13,290 bases of DNA from Thermodesulfobacteriota bacterium (lineage in GTDB: Bacteria > Desulfobacterota_D > UBA1144 > Nemesobacterales > N074bin48): assembly GCA_041572575.1 (NCBI GenBank), contig JBFFSH010000072.1:1-13290 (forward strand), in the 5' to 3' direction. The translations under genes were made by a program, and so were the position numbers. The notes beneath the pieces are model-generated. The model made no database searches. It was given only the letters and a program-made list of their open reading frames with translations, and was not told where the DNA came from. Positions 1 through 13,290 of this stretch are shown here, in pieces (position 1 is the stretch's first letter; every line of letters starts with the position of its first letter).

Positions 1-1281
1 AAGCGGCGGCATTAGAACAACTACATTCCCAAGCGGGCGAAGAAGCACTTCATCGTCCATAGCCCTGTCACAAACCTGCCAGCCCATTTTTTCTTTGGCC
101 TCATAGGGCTTTTTGGTTTTTTTGTCTTCAACAAGCTCAATGCCTGCCATAAGCCCTTTATTTCTTACATTGCCAACATGGGAAAGCCCCGTGAATTCTT
201 TTAGCTCATTTTCAAAATATTCAATTTTCTCCTGCAGTTCGACAAGAGTATTGTTCTTTTCAAATACTTCAATGTTGGCAATTGAAGCAGCACACGAGAT
301 TGGATTTCCGGCGTAGCTGTGGCCATGAAAGAATGTCTTGTATTCTTCGTATTCTCCAAGGAATGCATCGTAGACTTTTTGGTTTGTTATTGTTGCCGAA
401 AGCGGCAGGTAGCCTCCTGTCATGCCCTTGCCCAGCACCAGAATATCCGGGGTCACATCTTCATGCTCACAGGCAAACATCTTTCCTGTTCTTCCAAAGC
501 CGGTTGCTACTTCATCTACTATTAGAAGCACATCATGTTTATCGCAGTATTCTCTAACCTTTTTAAGATAACCCTCGGGGGCTACTATCATGCCGCCCGC
601 AGCCTGTACATATGGCTCGAGGATTACGGCACAAATCTCATCATGATGTTCACTTAGTATTTTATCAATCTCATCAGCACAGGCTATATTGCATGAGGGA
701 TAAGTTTTGTTAAGCGGGCATCTGTAGCAGTAGTATGACGGGGCTTTGTATGTTTCAAAAAGAAGGTCTTTAAACGCTGAATGAAACATGTCAATTCCAC
801 CAACAGATACAGCTCCGAGTGTGTCACCATGATATCCGTTTTCGAGATAAACAAATTTGGTCTTTTCTGGCTTGCCTTTATTCTTCCAGTACTGAAAGGC
901 CATCTTGATCCCAACCTCTACAGCGCTTGCGCCGTCTCCCGAGTAGAAAACTTTTTTAAGCCCTTCGGGGCATATATTTATTAATTCTTCAGCAAGCTTT
1001 GCAGCGGGTGGGTTAGTTATTCCAAGAAGGGTTGAGTGGCTAATATTATCGACCTGATTTTTTATGGCCTCATCGATTTCGGGTACCTTGTGGCCGTGAA
1101 TGTTTACCCATAGTGAGGACACTCCGTCTATGTACTTTTTACCCTCAGAATCATACAGGTAAACGCCTTCTCCTTTTTCTATAACAACAGGTTCTTTTTG
1201 TTCATACTCCTGCATTTGGGTAAAAGGATGCCAGACGTATTCTTTGTCCAGATCGGCGGTTTTTTTTGAATCTTCACCCAT
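1..1281 (-). CDS. bioA: 7,8-diaminopelargonic acid (DAPA) aminotransferase, PLP-dependent class III; 3' end runs off the window
   Basis: Absent from the ORF track because there is no stop in the window. Manual translation from ATG at 1281 is open to base 1: MGEDSKKTADLDKEYVWHPFTQM...DGVSSLWVNIHGH...VEVGIKMAFQYW...GYHGDTLGAVSV...DEVATGFGRTG...PDILVLGKGMTGGYLP (PLP lysine)...FFHGHSYAGNP...LLRPLGNVVVLMPPL. These are BioA motifs, and the gene lies directly downstream of bioB. Confidence 0.95.
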   Translation of the reverse strand, partial: MGEDSKKTADLDKEYVWHPFTQMQEYEQKEPVVIEKGEGVYLYDSEGKKYIDGVSSLWVNIHGHKVPEIDEAIKNQVDNISHSTLLGITNPPAAKLAEELINICPEGLKKVFYSGDGASAVEVGIKMAFQYWKNKGKPEKTKFVYLENGYHGDTLGAVSVGGIDMFHSAFKDLLFETYKAPSYYCYRCPLNKTYPSCNIACADEIDKILSEHHDEICAVILEPYVQAAGGMIVAPEGYLKKVREYCDKHDVLLIVDEVATGFGRTGKMFACEHEDVTPDILVLGKGMTGGYLPLSATITNQKVYDAFLGEYEEYKTFFHGHSYAGNPISCAASIANIEVFEKNNTLVELQEKIEYFENELKEFTGLSHVGNVRNKGLMAGIELVEDKKTKKPYEAKEKMGWQVCDRAMDDEVLLRPLGNVVVLMPPL

Positions 1282-1329
1282 TATGGATAGCCTATAAATT
1301 AAGAACTATGGTAGAAATGTTATAAAAAA

Positions 1330-2319
1330 CTAGTTAGCTATGTCTTTTCTGATTGGAAGTTCAAGATCATCGAGCATCTTGAGGTCTTCTGCAGGTGTTC
1401 TTCCCGGAGTTGTAAGATAGTTGCCAAGAATCATGGCGTTTGCTCCGGCAACAAGTCCCATGGCCTGTAAATCTCTAAGTGTAACTTCTCTCCCACCGGC
1501 TGTCATAATTATTTTGTCTGGAAGAATAAGTCTATAAATAGATATTGTCCTTACAGCCTCAAACGGTGCTACCTTTTCAAATTCTGAAAATGGTGTGCCC
1601 GGGCGCGGGTTCAGGAAATTAATAGGCACCCACGTGGGGTTTAACTCTCTTAGCTCAAACGCAAGCTCAAGTCTCTGCCTTACAGATTCTCCCATCCCCA
1701 AGATTCCTCCGCAGCATAGGTTCATTCCGGTTTCTTTTACAAGCTCTGCGGTTTTTCTTCTATGGTCATAAGTGTGAGTTGTACAAATATTAGGAAAGTG
1801 GCTCCTGCATGTTTCCAGATTATGATTATATCTCCAAACTCCGTGATCCCTTAGTGTATAAGCCTGCTCTTCAGTGAGGTCGCCAAGGGAGCAGCCAACT
1901 TTAAGTTCTGTTTCTTTTACAAGAAGATCAACGGCTTCCAGTACCTTTTTGAATATTCTGGGAGTAGGACCCTTGGCGCTAATGACGATGCAAAAATCCA
2001 TGGCGCCATTCTTTTCAGCCTGTCTTGCAGCACCAAGTATCTTTTCTGCTGCCATAAGAGGATGGGCTTCTACTTCGGTATCAAAATGTACGGACTGTGA
2101 ACAAAAAGAGCAGTCCTCGGGGCAGTTGCCGGTCTGTGCGCTTATAATGGATCTTAAGAATACTCCGTCACCTTTGTACTTGAGTGTGACTTTTCTTGCA
2201 AGTGAAATAAGGTCAGGTACTTCATCCTTTGGAAGCTCGGTTAAAGCCACCGCTTCTTCAAATGTGATTTGATCTTCGTTTTCTAATAATTTTTCTGATA
2301 CAGTTGATAAGACTCCGAT
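1330..2319 (-). CDS. bioB: Biotin synthase (radical SAM). Canonical GTG start at 2250; probable true start is ATC at 2319
   Basis: Radical SAM motif CPEDCSFC followed by SQS, the YNHNLET motif, Cys ligands in DFCIV / GCSLG / LCCGGILGMGE, VPINFL, GGRE and GNYLTT. The frame stays open upstream of 2250 with BioB-like sequence (EKLLENEDQITFEEAVAL). The start position is uncertain. Confidence 0.95.
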   Translation of the reverse strand: MGVLSTVSEKLLENEDQITFEEAVALTELPKDEVPDLISLARKVTLKYKGDGVFLRSIISAQTGNCPEDCSFCSQSVHFDTEVEAHPLMAAEKILGAARQAEKNGAMDFCIVISAKGPTPRIFKKVLEAVDLLVKETELKVGCSLGDLTEEQAYTLRDHGVWRYNHNLETCRSHFPNICTTHTYDHRRKTAELVKETGMNLCCGGILGMGESVRQRLELAFELRELNPTWVPINFLNPRPGTPFSEFEKVAPFEAVRTISIYRLILPDKIIMTAGGREVTLRDLQAMGLVAGANAMILGNYLTTPGRTPAEDLKMLDDLELPIRKDIAN

Positions 2320-2363
2320 TTTGGGCCCCCCAAATAAATTAGCAGATTAAATTTGAACACTCT

Positions 2364-2392
2364 AATTTACTAAAAACAGGTATGAAAGTCAA
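2364..2392 (-). promoter_or_regulatory. Putative sigma70 promoter for bioB(-bioA)
   Basis: Minus strand TTGACT (2392-2387), 17 nt spacer, TAAATT (2369-2364), about 30 nt upstream of a GGGGGG SD-like run at 2331-2326. Confidence 0.6.
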
Positions 2393-2415
2393 TTTGAAGC
2401 ACAAGCTTATAAAAT

Positions 2416-2910
2416 TTATAAAGCAGCCAGTTTTTTAAGCTCTGTGTTTAGTTGTTTTATTGTTGTAATAATTGTACCGCCGCTTGCTCGAATGAAGTAT
2501 TCAACCTGCAGGTTTACGGTCGATCCGTCATTGTCGGCGCTTAATCTGAAATCTCCCCTATAACCTAATATCTTCTTGCCCTTTGCAAATGCATACCCAA
2601 TCTCAGCGGCAGTACCGCTGTCCACATCTACTCCATCAAGTACGGCAAGTATAATATCCGAACTTTCAATTTCTGTGGTATTTAACTTTCCCAGTTCTAG
2701 ATTTAACTTATACCATGCACTTCTTTTTCTTTTGCCATATTCTAAAGAAGATACTTCTTTTATTTGTTTGTTTAGACGAGTATTCCATGGGTCGTAATAT
2801 GAAAATCCCAGTTTCTTTATAGCAGGAATAATAATGTTACTATGAAACTGCCTACCCACTTCAGAAAAGCCAAGAGGACCGGCCAGGTATATTTTGATTT
2901 TTTTATTCAA
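2416..2910 (-). CDS. Nucleoside 2-deoxyribosyltransferase / nucleotide N-glycosidase family protein
   Basis: 164 aa with a TTG start. Family motifs: KIYLAGP at the N-terminus, DIILAVLDGVDVDSGTAAEIGYAFAKGKKI (catalytic Glu in AAEIG) and NLQV near the C-terminus. Confidence 0.85.
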   Translation of the reverse strand: MNKKIKIYLAGPLGFSEVGRQFHSNIIIPAIKKLGFSYYDPWNTRLNKQIKEVSSLEYGKRKRSAWYKLNLELGKLNTTEIESSDIILAVLDGVDVDSGTAAEIGYAFAKGKKILGYRGDFRLSADNDGSTVNLQVEYFIRASGGTIITTIKQLNTELKKLAAL

Positions 2911-2975: not shown

Positions 2976-3004
2976 ATATTAGTTTATTTAATTTATATTG
3001 TCTA
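2976..3004 (-). promoter_or_regulatory. Possible sigma70 promoter for the deoxyribosyltransferase-family gene
   Basis: Minus strand TAGACA (3004-2999), 17 nt spacer, TAATAT (2981-2976). The region is very AT-rich, so a chance match is possible. Confidence 0.35.
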
Positions 3005-3100
3005 ATCATAGAAGATGTTTATTGGGGTTCTTTAAAAAAAGACTTTAATTTTCTTTAGAAATTTATTATATATAGTATTATTAATTAGTTTTTATAACTA

Positions 3101-3129
3101 TTGACATATTAAGTGAATTACTTTATTTT
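3101..3129 (+). promoter_or_regulatory. Putative sigma70 promoter for gspC
   Basis: Perfect -35 TTGACA (3101-3106), 17 nt spacer, TATTTT (3124-3129), about 30 nt before the gspC ATG. Confidence 0.5.
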
Positions 3130-3158
3130 TAAATTAATTATTAATTGGATTACTTAAG

Positions 3159-4091
3159 ATGCTTTCGGCAATAATAAAGAAATATATTAAAATTGTAGAA
3201 TTTGTACTAATTGCACTCATTGCAATCGTTTTTGTGCTAATAGTTCATGACAACTTTGTAAAACCATCATTATCTACAAGCAATCTTAAAAATAATAACA
3301 CTAATAAAAATAGCACCACTCGCAGAGCACCAACAGCAAATAGCACAAGACCCAGAGCATATTATAAGCCCATTCTTGCCAGTAATATATTTGGGTTAAA
3401 GAATATTGCAGTTTCAGATAGTTTAGCACCGGGACTTACAGGTGACAGAGACGCTCCGGAAACAAAGCTCAATATGGAGTTAATTGCAACTATAATAGAT
3501 ATTAACAATTCCCAGGCAGTATTGAAAAATTTGGATAACAACAAATCAAACGGCTATTTTATTGGTGATGAGGTAGATATATATAAATCTGAAAAAATAA
3601 AGATTTCTAAGGTCGAAAACTGTAAGGTGATATTGGAGCGAAGAAGCGGCTATGAAACAATAAAATGCAAAACAGTAACAGTTGCATCAACATCAAGAAA
3701 GCCTACACGAAACACCAGGCCAGAAATATCAAAACCTGACGATGATGAAGATGAAGCTCTTGATGAGGGCATAAAGAAAATCGGTGAAAATGAGTTTGAA
3801 GTAGACCAGGAGCTGCTCGATGAACTATTAGAGGATATTAACGAAATTATGGCTGAGGTGCGTGTGATACCAAATGAAGAAGGGCTCAAGCTCTTTGGTA
3901 TGAGGCGTAATACGTTCTTTTATAAAATAGGACTTAGAAACGGTGATACATTAAATATGATAAATGATGTGGAATTAACAGATGTGACAAATGCTCTTGG
4001 AATATTCCAGGAACTTAAAGGTCAGCCCAACTTTACCATTAACCTTACAAGGCGAAAGAAGAAGCACACTTTCGAGTACGCAGTCAGATAA
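3159..4091 (+). CDS. gspC: Type II secretion system protein C, with TM anchor, HR domain and C-terminal PDZ domain
   Basis: N-terminal TM segment (IVEFVLIALIAIVFVLIV), ILASNIFG motif, HR region (PETKLNMELIATII...), PDZ-like end (FYKIGLRNGDTLNMINDVEL...INLTRR). Lies immediately upstream of the secretin gene. Confidence 0.88.
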   Translation: MLSAIIKKYIKIVEFVLIALIAIVFVLIVHDNFVKPSLSTSNLKNNNTNKNSTTRRAPTANSTRPRAYYKPILASNIFGLKNIAVSDSLAPGLTGDRDAPETKLNMELIATIIDINNSQAVLKNLDNNKSNGYFIGDEVDIYKSEKIKISKVENCKVILERRSGYETIKCKTVTVASTSRKPTRNTRPEISKPDDDEDEALDEGIKKIGENEFEVDQELLDELLEDINEIMAEVRVIPNEEGLKLFGMRRNTFFYKIGLRNGDTLNMINDVELTDVTNALGIFQELKGQPNFTINLTRRKKKHTFEYAVR

Positions 4092-4152
4092 TTTACACCA
4101 TTTAATGAAACTCCAGTAGAGTTTTGTTTATTTTATAAATATAAAAAAGTAC

Positions 4153-4181
4153 TAGACTTAATATTAAAAGTAGTTTATGAT
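4153..4181 (+). promoter_or_regulatory. Putative internal sigma70 promoter for gspD
   Basis: TAGACT (4153-4158), 17 nt spacer, TATGAT (4176-4181), in the 131-nt gap between gspC and gspD, preceded by A/T tracts resembling an UP element. Confidence 0.5.
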
Positions 4182-4222
4182 TAAAACATAAAGTAATTTC
4201 TTAAACATTTTGGAGCAAGTTC

Positions 4223-7200
4223 ATGAGGGAGAAGATGAATAAAGAATTAGTGGCAATCTTAATATTGCTCACAACACTTGTAGCTACCAATTTATTTGCC
4301 CAGCACTCAATTGATGAGAATAAATCCAGTAAATCCGTAAGTTATAACTACAATAAGGATATTATAACTCATACGGTTGTAAAAGGCGATAGTATGGGTG
4401 GTCTGGCTTATCGTTATAAAACAACTGTAGACTATATAAAGCAGTTAAATAATATAACAAGGGATCAGGTATTTCTGGGTGAAGTTCTGAAAGTTCCTTT
4501 TAATACTAAAAATTCCAAGGGTAAAGACGCATATATAAGCTATACAATCCAAAAAGGTGACAGCCTTTCTCAAATTGCGTCTAAATATAAAACAGACACT
4601 AAATCTATAAAAATTGTTAATAAATTAGGTAGAAATCAGATAAACGTAGGGCAGAAACTATTAATTCCTTATAACAGGAAATTTGAGAGTTCGAAGGCCT
4701 ATGATTCTAAAGAAAGCATAAAAACAGCCTCTAAAATAGATAAAAAACCTGCTGCTATTCAGGTTAAGGGTAGTAAAAAGAAAGATTATCAAAAAGAAAT
4801 CGAAGATAAATATCTATCTTTTTTAGATAAACAGGAAAGATTAAAGAAAGAGGAACAAACTAAGATAAAAACAGCTTCATCAACGAATAAGAGTGTTAAA
4901 GAAACCTCAAAAAGCAATATAAACAGTCCTAAAGATAATAAAAACTATGCCGATCTGGAAAAATCACTTAAAAATGATCTTGTAAAAAGCACAAAAAGAG
5001 AAAAAGTAAAAACAGCTAAGATTACTAAGTCTGAAAATAGAGAATCCATAAATAAAGGTGCTTATATTGACTATGTTGTAAAGAGCGGTGACAGCATTTC
5101 CATACTTGCGCAAAAACATAATACAACTGCAAAAACTATAAGAACTTTAAACAATCTGGAAAGAAACCAGATAGATATTGGACAGACTCTTAAAATTCCA
5201 AATATTCCTGCCAGCAAGTATAAAACCTATCGAATAGAAAGTGGTGATAGCCTGTCTTATTTAGCTGATCGTCACGGAATTACTACAAAGGAGCTTATGG
5301 AGATAAATGGTCTTAGTTCAAAACAGATAAATATAGGCCAAAGAATAAAGCTTCCTTTGATCGAAGCGGATGTGCAGGAAAAACCAGAAATTGCAGCTAA
5401 AGAAGTTAAAGTAGCTAAAACAGAAACAATAGACAAGAAATCAGAAAAAAATGTAGAAAAGACTGAAATTAAACCACTCAAAACTACAGGTGGTGGACCA
5501 TTTCAGATAGCTTCTAATAAAGAAGAAATAATATTGGGTGTTAATACTGCAAAAGTAAAACAGCAAACAACTGAAAAAGTAGAGAATAAAACTGATCTAT
5601 CGAATGAGAAAACAGCAAAATCAGATAAATTGCCAAATAAGACAGATAAGCTAGATAATTCTAAAAACAACGATAAGCCAGTGCTGGTAAAAGCTCAAAC
5701 CAGTAAAACTGATAAGGTTATCAAACCAGATACAAAAATAGAAAAAGAAGTAAAAAAACCGGAAACTAAGCCGGTTATTCAGGTTAAAAAAGAATCAATC
5801 AAGACAGAAAATACAATTAAAAAAGTAGAAAATGAAGAAAAACAGTCTGATATCAAACCAGTTATTGAGGCTAAAAAAGAAACAAAAAAAGATATAATAA
5901 AACCTGAAACCACAACCCAGACCAAAAAAGAAGAAGTTATCAAAGTTGCCGAATCTGACAGCAATACTAAAAAATCTTTTAAAGTCGAAAAAACTCAAAC
6001 CGGGCAAAGTAACATTATTACTTATACAGTTGAAAGCGGAGACAGTGTTTCAGTGCTGGCTGATAAATATAACACTACATCGGCTGATATAAGGAAGTTA
6101 AATAGTTTAAAAGATAATAATATAAAGATAGGACAAAAACTTAAAATTTCTAAAATGCCTCCAAGCCCGTACCTCAGGTACAAAGTGCAAAGTGGAGATA
6201 GCCTTTCAATTGTGGCTGAAAAACATGGACTTACTACAAAACAGGCTATGGAGATTAATAATCTAGATTCAAAACAGATCAAGATTGGCCAGATATTAAA
6301 GTTTCCTAAAGAAATAGATAGCAAAAATGAGCATAAAACAACATTGGTTGCAATGGTTGATAGCAGTAAAGAAGCCAAAAGCGAAAAGATAATATCAGAA
6401 CCGGCCAAAGAAGTAGCTGTAAAAAAAGAAATAATTGAAGAGAAGAAAGAAGAAATAAAGCAAGAAGTAAAAGAAGTTAAGCAAAAAGAAGTTGAAAAGA
6501 CAGAAGAAAAAATAGAAGACATTAAAATAGTCAAAAAAGAAGAACCTGAAAGTCAGATAATTAAAAAAGATGAAAAGACAGAGCTTATAGCTAAAGAGGA
6601 AATAAATGAACCTGTAAAGGTTGAAAATGAAGCTTCAATACAAAATAAACTGGAGCCCAAAACTGAGATTAAAGAGAATTCCAAAGAAGTAATTGCTAAA
6701 GTTGAAGAGGTTGAAGAAGAAAATAAGATTGATGAGAAGCCACAGGCAACAAAAGCTGAAATAAAAAACACGGCTGCTCAGATTAATCCTGTAGATACCA
6801 GTAGTAGTGTTGTTAATGAACAAGTTGCTCCTGAAGAACCTAAAACAGAAAAGCTTGTGTATAGAGAAGGGGAGCAGGAAAACTACGGTGATGATGTAAC
6901 CCTGGCACAGCTTCTTACAATTGAAAACAGCAATATTCCTGAAGCAGATAAGAGGTATGAAAATCTCTTGGATGATCAGATAATGCTTGCAGCAAATAAT
7001 GACGGGCAGAGATATGATAGATTTGCTCAAAATACTCCGGAAACAAAACCGACAGTACCTGTAGTTAGAAGAGCTCCTGAGGTTGAAGCCACTGTTAACA
7101 TCCCTGATGAAATTGATCTAAGGGATTTTGTAAGGACCATAAGTGAAATTACTGGTGAAAGCTATATACTGGATGATAAGCTTAAATCACAGAAAGTTAC

Positions 7201-9079
7201 AATTGTTACTCCTGAAGGCGGCTTTAATAAGAAAAATGCAATACGTCTATTCGGAGCAATCCTGCGTATTCATGGTTTTACCATCTATAAGAAGGGAATA
7301 CTTAACGTAATTACTGAGTCAAGGGATATTAAACAAAAGGATATAGAGGTTATAGAAGGAAGATTGGTTACGGATCCTACTGATAGTTTTGTAACGCAAA
7401 TTATACCTTTAAAAAATATTTCAGCTCAGGATGTTGCTAATACCTTAAAGCCACTAGTTTCAAGAGAAGGAGATATAGTTGTTCATGCACCACTAAATAC
7501 ACTTATAATTGTGGAAACTGAATCAAATCTGGAAAGACTTATAAATATTCTAAACAATATTGATAAGGAAAAAGATATTATATTTGTAAAAATCTATAAC
7601 TCTGAGGCCTCCGATATAGCTGCAATGCTAACTGAGATTTTTGGTGGACAGAGCGCTTCACCAATTTCTACAACAGATGATGACAGAGGTGATAGAAGAA
7701 GGTCTACAAGCAGAAGAGCAAGGGCAGCAAGGGCTGCGGCTGGTGGGCAGACCGAGATTGCTGGCTTTAAAATAATCACAGATGAAAGAACAAATTCACT
7801 TATAGTTATTGCCTACCCTGATGATATGCCTAAAATTAAGGCAGCAATTGAAAGGCTTGATGTAGAAGTTGATGAGCCAGAGCATGGAATATATGTGATA
7901 AGACTCAAAAACGGTGATTCGGAACAGATTGTGAATGTTCTAAATTCATTAATATCAGGCGCTGCAAATACATCAAGTAGAACATCCAGAGGGTTTGCCG
8001 CTACCAGGGAAAGCCAGCAGCAGCAGGATCAGGGAAGAGGAGTACAAAGAACTTCTGCTTCCGGAGCTATTGCTGAATTTAGTTTAGAAGACATAAGAAT
8101 AACATCCGATATTTCTACAAATTCAATAATCGTCGTAGGTTCAAGAAGGGAGTTTGATGCAATAAAGAGGGTAATTGATGAGCTTGATATACGAAGAAGG
8201 CAGGTATTTGTAGAAGCAGCAATACTCGAAGTCAGCCTTGATCAGCTAAAGTCACTTGGAACAAACCTTAGCATCGGTTTTACAATAAACGATGATAACC
8301 TGGGGTTTGGAGGTACTAACCTTCCTGGTGTTCCAAGTCTTTTAGGTGCTGCAGCTGACAGCGAGAATACAGTATCACTTGTTGGAAGTCTGTCTGGTAT
8401 GTTTTTAGGAGTCGTTGGAGAGGAAGTAGATCCTGATGGTTCTGGTCCAATTCCGCCAATACCATCATTTAGCGCACTTTTTCAGGCACTTACATCTGTA
8501 ACTGATGTAAATATTCTTTCTACTCCAAGCATTGTTACTACAGATAATGAAGAAGCAGAGATCGTGGTAGCTGATGTGATTCCGTTCCCCACTGGTAGTA
8601 CGGTTGGAGACAGTGGGGTTACAGTCCAGACTATCGACAGACAACCTGTGGGTATAAGGCTTGCAATCACTCCGCAAATAGGTGATGGAGACTTTTTGCA
8701 TCTTGAGCTTCAGACCGAGGTATCATCTGTAAGAGATGCACCGACTGATCTTAACACCGAAGATTTTGGTATCGCTACAACTACAAGAACTGCCAGCTCT
8801 TCGGTAGTTGTTAAAAACGGTCAGACCATTGTAATTGGCGGCTTGGTTCAGGACAGAGAGAGTAATTTGGAAAACAGAGTGCCCGGACTTGGAAGTCTTC
8901 CGATACTTGGAAACCTATTTAAATTTAAATCAAAATCAAGTAGCAAAATCAATTTAATGATCCTTCTAACCCCAAGAATTATAGAAGATGAAAGAGATAT
9001 GAAATTAATACTTGAAGATAGGCAAAAAAGGAATATGCTATTACAGCAAAGGGGTTTTGATACAGAAGGAGTTTATTGA
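4223..9079 (+). CDS. gspD: Type II secretion system secretin GspD with an N-terminal extension carrying six LysM domains
   Basis: Sec signal peptide (ELVAILILLTTLVATNLFA|Q; alternative ATG at 4235), six LysM motifs, then from about aa 958 (nt 7094): N0 (IDLRDFVRTISEITGESYILD), N1 (TQIIPLKNISAQDV), N2 (ITDERTNSLIV), N3 (ITSDISTNSIIV) and the secretin domain (RRQVFVEAAILEV; NILSTPSIVTTDNEEAEIVV; VKNGQTIVIGGLV; RVPGLGSLPILGNLFK; LMILLTPRII). Lies between gspC and gspE. Confidence 0.95.
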   Translation: MREKMNKELVAILILLTTLVATNLFAQHSIDENKSSKSVSYNYNKDIITHTVVKGDSMGGLAYRYKTTVDYIKQLNNITRDQVFLGEVLKVPFNTKNSKGKDAYISYTIQKGDSLSQIASKYKTDTKSIKIVNKLGRNQINVGQKLLIPYNRKFESSKAYDSKESIKTASKIDKKPAAIQVKGSKKKDYQKEIEDKYLSFLDKQERLKKEEQTKIKTASSTNKSVKETSKSNINSPKDNKNYADLEKSLKNDLVKSTKREKVKTAKITKSENRESINKGAYIDYVVKSGDSISILAQKHNTTAKTIRTLNNLERNQIDIGQTLKIPNIPASKYKTYRIESGDSLSYLADRHGITTKELMEINGLSSKQINIGQRIKLPLIEADVQEKPEIAAKEVKVAKTETIDKKSEKNVEKTEIKPLKTTGGGPFQIASNKEEIILGVNTAKVKQQTTEKVENKTDLSNEKTAKSDKLPNKTDKLDNSKNNDKPVLVKAQTSKTDKVIKPDTKIEKEVKKPETKPVIQVKKESIKTENTIKKVENEEKQSDIKPVIEAKKETKKDIIKPETTTQTKKEEVIKVAESDSNTKKSFKVEKTQTGQSNIITYTVESGDSVSVLADKYNTTSADIRKLNSLKDNNIKIGQKLKISKMPPSPYLRYKVQSGDSLSIVAEKHGLTTKQAMEINNLDSKQIKIGQILKFPKEIDSKNEHKTTLVAMVDSSKEAKSEKIISEPAKEVAVKKEIIEEKKEEIKQEVKEVKQKEVEKTEEKIEDIKIVKKEEPESQIIKKDEKTELIAKEEINEPVKVENEASIQNKLEPKTEIKENSKEVIAKVEEVEEENKIDEKPQATKAEIKNTAAQINPVDTSSSVVNEQVAPEEPKTEKLVYREGEQENYGDDVTLAQLLTIENSNIPEADKRYENLLDDQIMLAANNDGQRYDRFAQNTPETKPTVPVVRRAPEVEATVNIPDEIDLRDFVRTISEITGESYILDDKLKSQKVTIVTPEGGFNKKNAIRLFGAILRIHGFTIYKKGILNVITESRDIKQKDIEVIEGRLVTDPTDSFVTQIIPLKNISAQDVANTLKPLVSREGDIVVHAPLNTLIIVETESNLERLINILNNIDKEKDIIFVKIYNSEASDIAAMLTEIFGGQSASPISTTDDDRGDRRRSTSRRARAARAAAGGQTEIAGFKIITDERTNSLIVIAYPDDMPKIKAAIERLDVEVDEPEHGIYVIRLKNGDSEQIVNVLNSLISGAANTSSRTSRGFAATRESQQQQDQGRGVQRTSASGAIAEFSLEDIRITSDISTNSIIVVGSRREFDAIKRVIDELDIRRRQVFVEAAILEVSLDQLKSLGTNLSIGFTINDDNLGFGGTNLPGVPSLLGAAADSENTVSLVGSLSGMFLGVVGEEVDPDGSGPIPPIPSFSALFQALTSVTDVNILSTPSIVTTDNEEAEIVVADVIPFPTGSTVGDSGVTVQTIDRQPVGIRLAITPQIGDGDFLHLELQTEVSSVRDAPTDLNTEDFGIATTTRTASSSVVVKNGQTIVIGGLVQDRESNLENRVPGLGSLPILGNLFKFKSKSSSKINLMILLTPRIIEDERDMKLILEDRQKRNMLLQQRGFDTEGVY
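4370..4669 (+). repeat. LysM domain pair 1 within gspD (aa ~50-92 and ~107-149)
   Basis: HTVVKGDSMGGLAYRYKTTVDYIKQLNNI...FLGEVLKVP and YTIQKGDSLSQIASKYKT...IKIVNKL...INVGQKLLIP match the LysM consensus YxVxxGDSLxxIAxxY...N.L....I.xGQxLxIP. Confidence 0.92.
5072..5356 (+). repeat. LysM domain pair 2 within gspD (aa ~284-326 and ~336-378)
   Basis: YVVKSGDSISILAQKHNTT...LNNL...IDIGQTLKIP and YRIESGDSLSYLADRHGIT...INGL...INIGQRIKLP. Confidence 0.92.
6023..6307 (+). repeat. LysM domain pair 3 within gspD (aa ~601-643 and ~653-695)
   Basis: YTVESGDSVSVLADKYNTT...LNSL...IKIGQKLKIS and YKVQSGDSLSIVAEKHGLT...INNL...IKIGQILKFP. Confidence 0.92.
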
Positions 9080-9083
9080 TTGA

Positions 9084-10760
9084 ATGAGGTCTCTGCAAGA
9101 AATACTGGTAGACAGAAATCCTGAGCTAGGATCAAGAATAAAAGATATATTAACAGCAAGTGAAGACAGTGCAGAAGAAGCCATAATAAGGTCTAATGTC
9201 CTGAATGACAAACAGATCATGGAGGCGTTTTCAGAGTACTATGAGCTTCCATTCAGAGTTAATATTTTTGAAAAAGAAATTGATCCGGAACTTGCTCAGC
9301 TTATACCCATAGCATTTGCCAAGAAAAACAGGATTATCCCTCTAAATAAAGATAATAATAAGGTTTATGTAGCGGTTTCACCCCCTATCGATCTATACTC
9401 TCTTGACGAGGTGAAATCTCTATTTAACTGTGAGGTTGAACCTTTTCTTTCACCTTCTCATGTAGTGCTTGATTGTATAAATAAAGTATACGAAAGGGAC
9501 AGAGAAGTTACAGAGAATATTGAGGGAGATGTAACCGGTATTAGTGAAGCAGACTTTCAGGAGCCAAAAGACCTGTTGGAAGCTGAAGATGAAGCTCCTA
9601 TAATTAGGTTTGTAAACTCGCTTTTATTTCAGGCAGTAAAAGAGAAGGCTAGTGATATTCACGTAGAGTGTTTTGAAAAAGATGTAATGATCCGTTTTAG
9701 AAAAGACGGGATGCTTCATAAAATTACCGAGATACCCAAAAAACTACAGTCCTCAGTAATATCCAGACTCAAGATCATGGCAGAGCTCGATATTGCCGAA
9801 AGAAGAAAGCCACAGGACGGCAGGATTAGAGTAAAGGTAGCTGGAAGGGATGTTGATGTAAGAATTTCAACAGTGCCTACATCCTGGGGTGAGAGCGTTG
9901 TAATGAGGCTTCTCGACCGCTCATCTGTGCTCCTTAGTCTTGAAGACCTGGGGGTAACCGGCCAGAAGCTTACAGATATAAATAATTTTATAAAAAGACC
10001 TCACGGGATTATTCTTGTTACAGGGCCTACGGGAAGTGGTAAGACAACCACTCTTTATGCCTCACTTGTAAGAATAAATTCCCCTGATAAAAAAATTATT
10101 ACAATTGAAGATCCTGTAGAGTATCAACTTCAGGGAGTAAACCAAATTCAGGTAAACACCAAAGTTAACCTTAGTTTTGCAAACGGACTGAGATCGATAT
10201 TAAGGCAAGACCCGGATGTGATACTGGTGGGTGAGATAAGAGACAGAGAAACTGCAGATATTGCTATTCATGCTTCTCTTACCGGTCATTTGGTTTTTTC
10301 CACCCTGCATACAAATGATTCGGCAAGTGCAATTACAAGGCTCATTGATATGGGTATCGAGCCGTTTTTGGTATCATCATCTCTAATGGCTGTGGTAGCT
10401 CAGAGGCTAGTAAGGCATTTATGCAACCACTGCAAGGAAGAATATACACCAACAGATGAAGAGCTTATGAAAATTGGTATACCAAGAGCATCGGTACTTA
10501 ATGATGTATTATTTAGATCAACCGGCTGTGAACAATGTCTGGATACCGGTTTTGCAGGTAGAAGTGGAATATTTGAGATATTAAAAATGGATGACGAAAT
10601 ACGAAATCTTACTTTACAAAGCACAGATTCCAGTACAATTAAGAAAAAATCAGTCGAGAGGGGACTTATAACACTCAGGGGAGACGGTATAGCTAAAATA
10701 CTGATGGGGCAAACATCTATAGACGAAGTATTAAGGGTTACCGAACAGGACGAAGTTTAA
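9084..10760 (+). CDS. gspE: Type II secretion system ATPase GspE
   Basis: APIIRFVNSLL, ASDIHVE, LDIAERRKPQDGR, Walker A GPTGSGKTTTLY, Asp box TIEDPVE, Walker B LRQDPDVILVGEIRD, His box TGHLVFSTLHTN, tetra-Cys CNHC...CEQC. Confidence 0.96.
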   Translation: MRSLQEILVDRNPELGSRIKDILTASEDSAEEAIIRSNVLNDKQIMEAFSEYYELPFRVNIFEKEIDPELAQLIPIAFAKKNRIIPLNKDNNKVYVAVSPPIDLYSLDEVKSLFNCEVEPFLSPSHVVLDCINKVYERDREVTENIEGDVTGISEADFQEPKDLLEAEDEAPIIRFVNSLLFQAVKEKASDIHVECFEKDVMIRFRKDGMLHKITEIPKKLQSSVISRLKIMAELDIAERRKPQDGRIRVKVAGRDVDVRISTVPTSWGESVVMRLLDRSSVLLSLEDLGVTGQKLTDINNFIKRPHGIILVTGPTGSGKTTTLYASLVRINSPDKKIITIEDPVEYQLQGVNQIQVNTKVNLSFANGLRSILRQDPDVILVGEIRDRETADIAIHASLTGHLVFSTLHTNDSASAITRLIDMGIEPFLVSSSLMAVVAQRLVRHLCNHCKEEYTPTDEELMKIGIPRASVLNDVLFRSTGCEQCLDTGFAGRSGIFEILKMDDEIRNLTLQSTDSSTIKKKSVERGLITLRGDGIAKILMGQTSIDEVLRVTEQDEV

Positions 10761-10801: not shown

Positions 10802-12013
10802 ATGCCAGTATTTAAGTATAAAGCTATTAATAATCAGGGAAATACGGTAGACGGCACAATAGATGCTGAATCTATAAAGACTGCTTCTGATAAGCTTAAA
10901 AAAGACGGATTTTTCCCTTCTTCAATTGATGAAGTTCAAAAAGGCGGCGAGCGAAACAGATTATCGCTTTTTAAGGGTGTGAGTACATCTGAGCTTGCAA
11001 TTTCAACAAGGCAGTTTTCCACACTCATTTCTGCGGGGCTGCCTTTAGAGGCTTCACTAACCACACTATCGGAACAAACCGAGGATAAAAACTTAAGCCA
11101 GGTTCTCTCTCAGGTACGAGATAAAGTAAGTGAAGGCGGCTCTCTTGCTAATTCACTCAAGGATCATAAAAACGTTTTTTCTGATATTTATACAAGTATT
11201 GTAAGGGCAGGTGAGGCAAGCGGAAATCTTGATGTGGTACTTCTTAGGCTTGCTGATTTTTTGGAAAAGCAGGCTGCACTAAGATCAAAGGTAAGAGGCG
11301 CGTTTGTTTACCCGATTTTCATGTTCGTTATCGGAAGCGGAGTACTGGTTTTTATGATGACATTTGTGATTCCAAGAATTACTAAAATTTTTGAGGAAAG
11401 TAAGAAAGCACTTCCTTTTATGACTGTTTTATTAATCAACACAAGTAATTTTATAGTACAGTACTATTATCTGATTTTTATATTTTTTATTGGAATTGCT
11501 TATATATTATATAGATATGTTCAGACGGATAAAGGTAAAGCGCAAAAAGACAAGCTGTCCTTGAAAATCCCGATATTTGGAAAGATAAACAGGATGGTTA
11601 TACTAGCAAGGGTTACAAGGACTTTGGGAACTTTACTATCAAGTGGCATACCACTACTCGATGCCCTGAGAATAGGGGGTGAAGTATCGGGCAATCAGGT
11701 ATATATTGATTCTCTCAATAGTGTGAGTGAAAATGTAAAAGAGGGTACCAGTCTTGCAAGGCCTCTTGAGCAGAGCGGAGTATTTCCACCAATGATGACC
11801 AGGATGATCGCAGTAGGAGAACAGACAGGCGAACTAGAGGAAATGCTTGATAAGGTAGCAGATAGCTATGATCAGCAGGTTGAGACTACACTCTCAGCAC
11901 TTACGTCTCTTCTTGAACCGATTATGATTGTAGTCATGGGTGGTATAGTAGGGTTTATTGTTATGGCTATTTTATTGCCAATTTTTGATATTACATCAAC
12001 TATATCTAATTAA
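10802..12013 (+). CDS. gspF: Type II secretion system inner membrane platform protein GspF
   Basis: MPVFKYKA start, TRQFSTLISAGLPL, AGEASGNLD, YP-led TM segment, LGTLLSSGIPLL, VGEQTGELEEML, LLEPIMIVVMGGIVGFIVMAILLPIF. Confidence 0.96.
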   Translation: MPVFKYKAINNQGNTVDGTIDAESIKTASDKLKKDGFFPSSIDEVQKGGERNRLSLFKGVSTSELAISTRQFSTLISAGLPLEASLTTLSEQTEDKNLSQVLSQVRDKVSEGGSLANSLKDHKNVFSDIYTSIVRAGEASGNLDVVLLRLADFLEKQAALRSKVRGAFVYPIFMFVIGSGVLVFMMTFVIPRITKIFEESKKALPFMTVLLINTSNFIVQYYYLIFIFFIGIAYILYRYVQTDKGKAQKDKLSLKIPIFGKINRMVILARVTRTLGTLLSSGIPLLDALRIGGEVSGNQVYIDSLNSVSENVKEGTSLARPLEQSGVFPPMMTRMIAVGEQTGELEEMLDKVADSYDQQVETTLSALTSLLEPIMIVVMGGIVGFIVMAILLPIFDITSTISN

Positions 12014-12031: not shown

Positions 12032-12448
12032 ATGAATTCATCATCAGGTTTTACGTTAATTGAAATATTGGTAGTGGTTATCATTATAGGCACTATTGCT
12101 TCGATTGTCGGAGTTAATATTGTGCAAAAATTAGAAGAAGCAAAAATAGATACGACTAAAATTCAAATCACTAACCTGGAATCCGGACTAAAACTATTTA
12201 AAATAAAAAACGGATTTTATCCTGAAACTGATCAAGGCTTGGAAGCTTTGGTATCTGCACCCTCTGTTGGTAGAGAGGTTAAACATTCAACCGGTTTTAT
12301 CGATGGAGATAAAATACCCCTTGATGGTTGGGGAAGTGAATTTGAGTATATAGGTCCCGATCAAACTGGAGACAAGAGTTACGAAATAATCTCACCCGGG
12401 CCAGATGCGCAACTTCAAACCGAGGATGACATATCCAGTAAAGACTAA
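12032..12448 (+). CDS. gspG: Type II secretion system major pseudopilin GspG
   Basis: Prepilin cleavage site G|FTLIE and hydrophobic helix; GFYPETDQGLEALV, PLDGWG, and a C-terminal acidic loop (SPGPDAQLQTEDDI) like the Ca-binding loop of GspG. SD-like AGGGGG upstream. Confidence 0.93.
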   Translation: MNSSSGFTLIEILVVVIIIGTIASIVGVNIVQKLEEAKIDTTKIQITNLESGLKLFKIKNGFYPETDQGLEALVSAPSVGREVKHSTGFIDGDKIPLDGWGSEFEYIGPDQTGDKSYEIISPGPDAQLQTEDDISSKD

Positions 12449-12450
12449 CA

Positions 12451-12960
12451 ATGAGAGATGAAAAAGGCTTTACTATTATTGAAATAATAATAGTTGTAGT
12501 TATTTTGAGCAGTTTTCTTCTGGTAGCAGTACCAAGGTTAGATAATTTTACTGAAGGTAACCTTAAAAGCGGCTCAAGAAATCTGAGTACGACTATAAGG
12601 TATTTGTATAGCGAAGCTGCATTTAAAAAAAAGATTCATAAGCTTGCATTTGATATTGATGAGGGTGAATATTGGGTAGAAGTCTTAGAGGTAGATGAAT
12701 ATGAGGTATCAACCGACCCATTTCTTAAAAAGAGGAAACTTCCTAATAATGTTTCATTTAAAGATATTGTTACACTAAGAAGCCTTGGGATTTCTACCGA
12801 GGGCAAGGATGAATTTATACTATTTCTACCCTCAGGATTTGTAGAACCTGTAGTGATTCATCTGGAAAGTAATTCAGGGGATGTTTATACTCTAGCTACA
12901 AAACCTTATACAGGTGCAACTGCTGTGTTTGATGAATACAAAGAAATTCTTATTCAATAA
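12451..12960 (+). CDS. gspH: Minor pseudopilin, GspH-like
   Basis: Prepilin motif [15 protein letters not shown]...AVPRL, LYSEAAF helix and ILFLPSG motif typical of GspH/FimT; located directly after gspG. Confidence 0.8.
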
Positions 12961-12964
12961 AATA

Positions 12965-13290
12965 ATGACAGTAAAAAAAAAGTATATTAAACCTAATTGT
13001 AATAGGCAATCTGGATTTACTCTTCTCGAAGTTCTTGTAGCAGTTGTTATTCTTGGCTCTTCACTTGCTGTTCTACTGGGTACTGTGAACAGGAATCTGG
13101 TATTAACATCTGATTCAAAAAGTCTCTCTATCGCAAGAATGCTTGCACAGGATAAAATTTCAGAAGTAGAGCTTGAGGGTTATCCTGAAAACAAGAACGA
13201 GGAGGGTGAGTTTGAGGATTTTCCGGATTTTAAATGGTATTTATCTGTTGCACCATTAGAAATTGCATCACTTGAAACAGATATTAAGAT
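12965..13290 (+). CDS. gspI: Minor pseudopilin, GspI-like; 3' end runs off the window
   Basis: Manual translation from ATG at 12965: [38 protein letters not shown]...[19 protein letters not shown]...[13 protein letters not shown]..., open to the window end. Follows gspH. Confidence 0.8.

Follow-up and report, generated by a model that had tools for sequence, protein, structure and literature searches.

How a secretin ring is inserted into and retained in the cell wall is only partly understood, and the locus described here raises the question of what six LysM domains, placed ahead of a type II secretion system (T2SS) secretin in the same chain, could contribute. The window, which is the whole stretch of DNA analysed (13,290 nucleotides), is an entire contig (C72) of the host genome G000, a 2.6-Mb assembly that is 96% complete, and the closest homologues of its 1618-residue secretin are named Candidatus Dadabacteria. 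The reading that we consider likely is that the LysM extension is a periplasmic, multivalent peptidoglycan tether that would hold and probably position the secretin pore. A built-in wall tether is the best reading because of the LysM fold, the retained glycan-pocket positions and the selection acting on these domains.

One reading frame for six LysM domains and a secretin

The gspD frame (4223..9079, forward strand, as are all features of the gene below) runs for 1618 codons without an internal stop in its ORF translation and encodes a signal peptide, six LysM domains with linkers and a complete T2SS secretin. GGAG lies 7 nt upstream of the ATG, and relatives P0005-P0007 align from the same start codon. 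A predicted Sec signal peptide (4223..4300, aa 1-26), read by eye from hydropathy, probably ends at LFA|Q, a cleavage site supported by AFA|Q at the matching place in relatives P0005-P0008. It is followed by LysM1 (aa 49-92) and LysM2 (aa 106-149) at 4367..4669, seen by Pfam and in the model, and by linker 1 (4673..5065; 131 aa, net charge +16), in which helices are predicted at aa 185-220 and at aa 242-257. LysM3 (aa 283-326) and LysM4 (aa 335-378) occupy 5069..5356 according to Pfam, model and fold search, and the predicted disordered linker 2 (5357..6016; 220 aa, net +10) leads to LysM5 (aa 600-643) and LysM6 (aa 652-695) at 6020..6307, again from Pfam and model and a probable copy of the LysM3-4 pair. 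Linker 3 (6311..7087; 259 aa, net -22) separates LysM6 from N0 and contains a conserved 61-residue segment (6848..7030, aa 876-936) with no confident fold (pLDDT <50). The periplasmic domains N0, N1, N2 and N3 (7094..8185, ~aa 958-1321) carry low-confidence insertions in N2 and N3, and are followed by the secretin domain PF00263 (8486..8986; aa 1422-1588 in Pfam, also modelled) and a C-terminal tail (8990..9067) consisting of a single helix, 25-35 aa shorter than the tails of XcpQ or PulD.

Pfam reported six LysM stretches (E 4e-76), N0 at aa 963-1027, three Secretin_N matches and Secretin, and the curated GspD model TIGR02517 covered aa 962-1595 with 470 bits against a cut-off of 351. The protein remained below the cut-offs of the PilQ, SctC and MshL models, with 148 bits for the PilQ model TIGR02515 (cut-off 284); it had no AMIN match in Pfam, and SPOR was not among the 10 Pfam families found in the analysed DNA. 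A model of aa 860-1618, built with a 74-sequence alignment, gave N0-N3, the secretin domain and the single C-terminal helix, with PulD, ExeD and GspD as top fold matches. Only 32 aa, forming one helix, lie beyond the last strand motif, so that the full PulS/AspS-binding S-domain, a variable feature of the GspD family, is absent. Apart from the missing full S-domain, all sequence tests performed identify the 1618-residue protein as a GspD. From the end of the signal peptide to aa 1383, no 15-residue stretch is hydrophobic at a Kyte-Doolittle value >1.6, and therefore there is no second signal peptide ahead of N0. The earlier note, written from the DNA alone, had described a single N-terminal signal peptide, three tandem LysM pairs and a complete GspD core, and all three descriptions stand: the N-terminal stretch is the only strongly hydrophobic one before aa 1383, the six Pfam LysMs pair as 1-2, 3-4 and 5-6, and N0-N1-N2-N3 are followed by a secretin domain.

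The further claim that this is a real fusion rather than two merged genes was borne out by the single frame, the lack of a second signal peptide and contigs from other sequencing runs that span the junction. Four of the 24 runs listed were mapped to the window. One contig of run X4 spans 3000-7542 and one of run X8 spans 4544-7542, both gapless; they differ from the window by 8-9 substitutions, and both join the LysMs to N0, which makes misassembly across 6300-7100, where the note had proposed to map reads, very unlikely. X4 and X8 are possible sources of the assembled DNA, yet they come from two different studies. The only indel listed among the four mapped runs is an in-frame 3-nt loss in X17. 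All but one of the 13 members in the 90% protein cluster of this GspD are 1618 aa long, the exception having 1614 aa, which speaks against a stop or frameshift separating the LysM part from gspD in relatives, and no split version was found among the complete records of the giant clade, the group of multi-LysM forms described below. Misassembly and merged genes were rejected on the evidence of hydropathy, the spanning contigs and the cluster lengths. At 4648-4761, every covering run differs from the window at the same 5-8 positions with the frame intact, and because all of them share these differences the window may hold a local variant or consensus error there. Contigs from a metatranscriptome run cover parts of gspD, with 16 of 30 bins covered, a figure that, lacking a silent control, is not a measure of transcription, and a promoter scan returned 12 sites against 8.3 +/- 2.9 in shuffled sequence.

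Partner genes of the secretion system

On the forward strand, gspD is preceded by a delta-type gspC (3159..4091; NF041515 above cut-off) and followed by genes for the GspE ATPase (9084..10760; TIGR02533 above cut-off), GspF (10802..12013; TIGR02120 above cut-off) and the major pseudopilin GspG (12032..12448; TIGR01710 above cut-off). Profile matches further identify gspH-like (12451..12960) and gspI-like (12965..13288) minor pseudopilin genes, the latter interrupted by the contig end. Divergent from gspC, on the reverse strand of window 1-2910, lie bioA-like aminotransferase, biotin synthase-like radical SAM and nucleoside deoxyribosyltransferase-like genes. The genes gspJ and gspK are on contig C128, and a second locus (L070, C21:15951-18966), after a comF-like gene and near dnaA/dnaN, holds gspL, gspM and a probable gspN. 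GspM and GspJ score slightly below the Pfam cut-off and GspN is named by position only. The partners of GspD found in this genome therefore comprise gspC, E, F, G, H, I, J, K, L and M, and a full-length gspL orthologue is present in 32 of 41 genomes. In the relatives' loci listed, the operon terminates at gspK. A MoxR-type AAA ATPase gene (C128:1599-2747) overlaps the end of gspK and recurs in many relatives, at the same place in the loci of families f2, f4 and f7, and is not there in the f3 and f8 loci listed.

The genome was also searched for the factors that could otherwise connect or deliver a secretin. The PulS/AspS pilotin families PF09691 and PF16549 had no match in G000, although controls matched, and no GspA-type ATPase was found there with a profile that matched strongly in two relatives. 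The earlier note had proposed to look for gspA, a pilotin and tsaP in this genome: the first two gave no match in the 96% complete assembly, and a TsaP-like gene is present (C48:14307-15350), named from its LysM and FlgT_C domains. A GspB search matched 0 of 41 genomes, and no positive control matched either. Two PG_binding_1 proteins of GspA-like length in G000 are L,D-transpeptidases and were rejected as GspA. An ExeA-type ATPase in G007, a LysM-less member of f7, was not counted as a GspA trade-off of the T2SS: its neighbours encode a TPR protein and a membrane protein, it ends in an SH3-like domain (by eye), and its surroundings suggest an exopolysaccharide or protein-sorting locus. The GspA-type match in G004 adjoins capsule-type genes and was likewise set aside. 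With the same searches, no T2SS-tied GspA-type ATPase was found in the LysM-less relatives either, so that the tether would be an aid rather than a required substitute, and the suggestion of the note that it could replace GspAB or pilotin help is weak and not upheld as a general rule.

G000 carries a separate type IV pilus locus, pilMNOPQ, with its own PilQ. Its peptidoglycan genes include Mur ligases and L,D-transpeptidases, and the presence of the Mur ligases indicates that this organism makes a peptidoglycan wall. The genome has 13 LysM matches, 6 of which lie within this secretin. Because of this share, LysM/CBM50 counts in Dadabacteria should not all be taken as wall-degrading enzymes; the inference of wall degradation from LysM was raised, with a caveat, in a preprint on the group (10.1101/2020.06.22.165886). 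Elsewhere in G000, in a polysaccharide-synthesis neighbourhood (C81:4707-6578), a 624-aa protein has a single LysM together with a hydrophobic segment, an acidic linker and a DnaJ-like segment recognised by eye.

LysM domains, linkers and a putative wall tether

The six LysM matches, of ~44 aa each, score 45.7-55.5 bits against a PF01476 cut-off of 20.9. Modelling of the domains, which the earlier note had proposed, was performed as a single-sequence AlphaFold prediction of aa 27-726 and returned six strand-helix-helix-strand LysM folds at pLDDT ~80, with linkers mostly <50. The nearest solved structures are the LysM pairs of the peptidoglycan hydrolases LytE (8i2e) and Thermus thermophilus P60 (4uz2/4uz3). 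In the P60-chitohexaose complex, sugar binding is described as mostly via the main chain, weak (~90 micromolar) and possibly involving two molecules, with pocket residues that include Val21, Gly24, Thr26, Leu27 and Leu52 and the aromatic Tyr28 and Phe50 (PMC4356369). Positions matching the first five hold V/I, G, S, L/I/V/M and V/I in all six LysMs, and G-D is found in 38 of 39 giant-clade LysM rows, the remaining row being gapped there. Of the LysM glycan pocket, which the strand1-helix1 and helix2-strand2 loops form, the main-chain and aliphatic positions are kept, and the equivalents of Tyr28 and Phe50 are small or polar residues, so that the affinity of each LysM may be low.

Conserved LysM domains might instead be mainly self-association or partner-binding modules that aid ring assembly and not wall binders. 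The LysM region of intimin is reported to dimerise (as cited in PMC5595812), P60 LysM pairs to dimerise intermolecularly on sugar (PMC4356369), and the missing PulS/AspS-type pilotin and short C-terminal tail would leave room for such a function. Nevertheless, the intimin and P60 precedents also bind glycan in these sources, and the positions conserved here are those of the glycan pocket, so we hold this alternative to be quite improbable.

In one sequence pair, the frame and its counterpart in L119, dN/dS was 0.056 for the LysMs, 0.028 for the core and 0.445 for the linkers, and the 264 LysM codons carried 11 non-synonymous and 47 synonymous changes; this pair indicates strong purifying selection on the LysMs. 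Identity to P0003 is 91-100% for each of the six LysMs and 70-81% for the linkers, and in the farthest giant forms the aligned LysMs retain 64-77% identity and the linkers 16-42%. A repeat 951 nt apart (75% over 119 nt) links the LysM3-4 and LysM5-6 regions, and the LysM5-6 pair probably arose as a duplicate of the LysM3-4 pair. These patterns also bear on the idea that one LysM is sufficient and that the extra copies and linkers represent neutral expansion. Copy number in the clade ranges from 4 to 7, recent near-identical LysM duplicates occur in P0005 and the linkers evolve fast, and neutrality may still hold for linker length; for the domains, their much higher identity to P0003 and the shortage of non-synonymous changes make it very improbable.

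The tether, which remains the preferred reading, could work as follows. In one chain, six LysMs stand between the only signal peptide and a full GspD; given secretin topology, the C-terminal domain would form the outer-membrane ring, N0-N3 would line the periplasmic channel, and the 930 residues ahead of N0 would hang in the periplasm. The LysM pairs would attach to the GlcNAc backbone of the peptidoglycan that the cell itself makes, as the family, the conserved pocket positions and the selection suggest. Because single-site LysM binding is weak, a firm hold would need avidity, which six LysMs per chain, or ~90 per ring if it is a 15-mer, could provide. Disordered linkers would spread the pairs over the wall, tens of nanometres around the pore, and the tether could immobilise single monomers as well as the completed ring and would probably bias where assembly takes place, as the AMIN domains of PilQ do.

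The linkers show a distinct charge pattern, in which the LysMs and first two linkers are basic and the last linker is acidic. Among 1627 long frames of the genome this GspD holds the most Lys/Glu-rich 150-residue window, and its rank indicates that such inflation is specific to it. A coil estimate puts the last LysM pair ~13 nm and the first up to ~28 nm from N0, the latter comparable to a periplasm of ~30 nm (PMC9239104), and the 930-residue extension has a contour of ~335 nm. The extension is thus far longer than the reach from N0 to the wall requires, and a plain anchor leaves its length unexplained. Arms long enough at full contour could also be imagined to extend to the cell surface and there serve feeding or adhesion by capturing chitin or foreign peptidoglycan, in keeping with the proposal that Dadabacteria are microbial peptidoglycan degraders (10.1101/2020.06.22.165886). 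We regard this as the most improbable of the readings considered: sequence ahead of N0 is periplasmic in the secretins described in PMC9239104, 10.1101/525063 and PMC5285504, no second membrane-crossing segment is present, and an arm threaded through the channel would presumably block it.

The segment at aa 876-936 stands apart from the rest of its linker, with an identity of 62-89% within the giant clade, where aa 697-875 reach 16-70%, and a dN/dS of 0.20 (one pair, against L119). In the model of aa 860-1618 it neither folded nor docked on N0. Long disordered linkers are protease-sensitive, and this conserved, unfolded stretch directly ahead of N0 could be a processing or docking site. The extension might accordingly be cut off after export, leaving an ordinary GspD ring and a free periplasmic LysM protein; since the fusion has been kept across four families, with no split giant form among the complete records and no second signal peptide, such cleavage appears improbable, and the tether attached to its ring is retained as the preferred reading.

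Distribution, origin and known systems

Homologues were searched in the range of 889-2832 aa, and the best 120 of 185 matches were used, a design that favours extended forms. In the 121 proteins so obtained, every one had at least one LysM: 107 had one, 6 had two and 8 had 4-7. Besides the present one, six further clusters share the giant plan: four of 1643, 1683, 1692 and 1828 aa, and two represented by partial records. Their proteins carry 4-7 LysMs, their cores are 81-98% identical, and one lies on a 1.7-Mb contig. A census of GspD loci from 48 genomes, in which length introduces less bias and from which 3 were dropped for a missing 5' end, found LysM at the same position in 32 of 45 GspDs, with one or two each, and 13 without. 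By family, LysM was present in 18/19 of f2, 12/14 of f7, 1/1 of f4, 1/4 of f3, 0/2 of f5 and 0/5 of f8; because the loci taken were those with the best scores, f2 and f7 are over-represented. The LysM-less f7 frame of G038 is without a signal peptide and may be truncated. Since the 13 LysM-less relatives still keep the gsp operon, the order can do without the tether. The fusion is a trait of the whole order, most often with a single LysM, and the 1618-residue form is its extreme.

In a tree of 57 GspD cores, from which the partial sequences of G023, G038, G042, G043 and G045 were left out, the giant forms make one clade with support 1.0. LysM-less GspDs nest among LysM-bearing ones, which suggests repeated LysM loss from a one-LysM ancestor, with root support of 0.0-0.68. 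The ancestral form in the order would have had about one LysM, which the giant clade could then have multiplied by internal duplication. For families f6 and f9, a GspD was found in 0 of 6 and, at the GspD level, in 0 of 19 small genomes, respectively; a T2SS is reported for terrestrial Dadabacteria clades only (10.1101/2020.06.22.165886), which fits the absence from f6 and f9.

Beyond the order, these searches gave no LysM-bearing secretin: among 90 long secretins only the 7 giant-clade members list LysM, and the one LysM-bearing protein among a further 230 secretins scanned is itself of Dadabacteria type (56% identity). A metagenome scan returned at least one locus. A profile search of 1.84 billion representatives was dominated by very long multi-N-domain secretins and sampled ~20 of ordinary length. 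From that search, 129 of 147 further records (P0205-P0351) are secretins that measure 2000-5500 aa, contain 21-53 matched stretches each and have named relatives in Planctomycetota, so that the size which the earlier note had called giant is not exceptional; no description of these 2000-5500-aa secretins was found in the literature search. In the ESM Atlas, two Bacillota clusters of 79 and 119 members pair LysM with Secretin_N (feature score 0.84), and the pairing may therefore have arisen more than once. These proteins are single chains of ~595 aa, compared by ESM Atlas features only, and their fusion is probably independent of the Dadabacteria one.

In type IV pili, TsaP and FimV use LysM to tie the secretin complex to the wall; they are separate polypeptides with one LysM each, whereas here six are fused to the secretin itself. 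Similarly, GspA/GspB (ExeAB, OutB) tie the T2SS secretin to peptidoglycan (PMC9239104) as separate inner-membrane proteins. The closest precedent is LspD of Legionella pneumophila, a 791-aa T2SS secretin with a SPOR domain predicted before N0 (PMC9239104, PMC6617341, 10.1101/525063), which a 2022 paper described as the only T2SS secretin known with a wall-binding domain (PMC9239104). LspD shares with the present protein a predicted wall-binding domain ahead of N0, and its genome is described as without GspA, GspB and canonical pilotin; it has one predicted SPOR in place of six LysMs on a 930-aa extension and belongs to an unrelated lineage. On the 2022 count, Dadabacteria add a whole order with a different module to that single secretin. 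In PilQ, 2-3 AMIN domains before N0 bind peptidoglycan and localise the type IVa pilus machine (PMC5285504); the tandem arrangement ahead of N0 is alike, and the pilus, AMIN fold and pilMNOP context contrast with a T2SS, LysM and gsp genes here. YeeJ and intimin also place a periplasmic LysM between signal peptide and outer-membrane barrel, and in YeeJ it binds peptidoglycan and aids surface localisation (PMC5595812); they are single-chain barrels with one LysM and no secretin ring. By analogy, the 1618-residue GspD most likely works like LspD or PilQ, while matching neither by domain type.

With LspD in print, the concept of a self-anchoring T2SS secretin has a precedent, and the novelty is confined to the LysM module and its number. 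Regarding the proposal of the earlier note that this secretin carries its own multivalent wall tether, the genuine fusion, LysM fold, kept pocket positions and selection favour it, and its novelty as a concept falls away. The literature search, mainly of open-access titles and abstracts and so liable to overlook a remark in a review or domain survey, found no description of a LysM-GspD, and the Dadabacteria preprint, in its available text, mentions T2SS and LysM separately (10.1101/2020.06.22.165886). The note knew of no characterised multi-LysM GspD; this still holds for the literature found, yet wall-anchored secretins are known from LspD and PilQ. The multi-LysM GspD is real, conserved and apparently undescribed in this form, yet a variant of a known self-anchoring solution. 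Natural variants with 0, 1, 2 and 4-7 LysMs on a conserved core form a series on which valency and reach could be tested.

A wider proposal, which we consider possible though doubtful, is that Dadabacteria built the whole secretin scaffold into the secretin in two ways, as a corona of ~90 LysMs in the giant clade and as an envelope-spanning GspD in f2. In the corona, LysMs on arms of 100-260 residues would pin the pore like guy-ropes and may tie the outer membrane to the wall; in f2, a single GspD chain could reach from the inner membrane through the wall to the outer membrane and take over the role of GspB. At the start of f2 GspDs, 81 of 113 proteins have an unusually well conserved 20-residue hydrophobic segment without a nearby cleavage motif, and the first 28 residues are 66% identical between genera against 25-32% in other families, although the f2 genera may be closer kin than those of f7. 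This start could serve as an inner-membrane anchor that is not cleaved off, or else as a signal peptide of an unusual kind. About 14 residues past it, f2 GspDs (e.g. L041:12303-15143 and L049:4885-7593) carry a conserved ENxAxTxEL motif.

Two further observations concern proteins outside this architecture. P0140 (1352 aa), a distant GspD, has several OmpA-like repeats (PF00691) after the secretin domain and may be a further wall-binding fusion, here placed C-terminally. Many f2 genomes, and G035 as well, encode separate proteins of 142-146 aa outside the gsp operon, each with a signal peptide, a linker and a GspD N0-like domain (L076:4042-4479, L077:3544-3969, L078:3670-4104). None was found in G000, and they could possibly act as decoy or adaptor.
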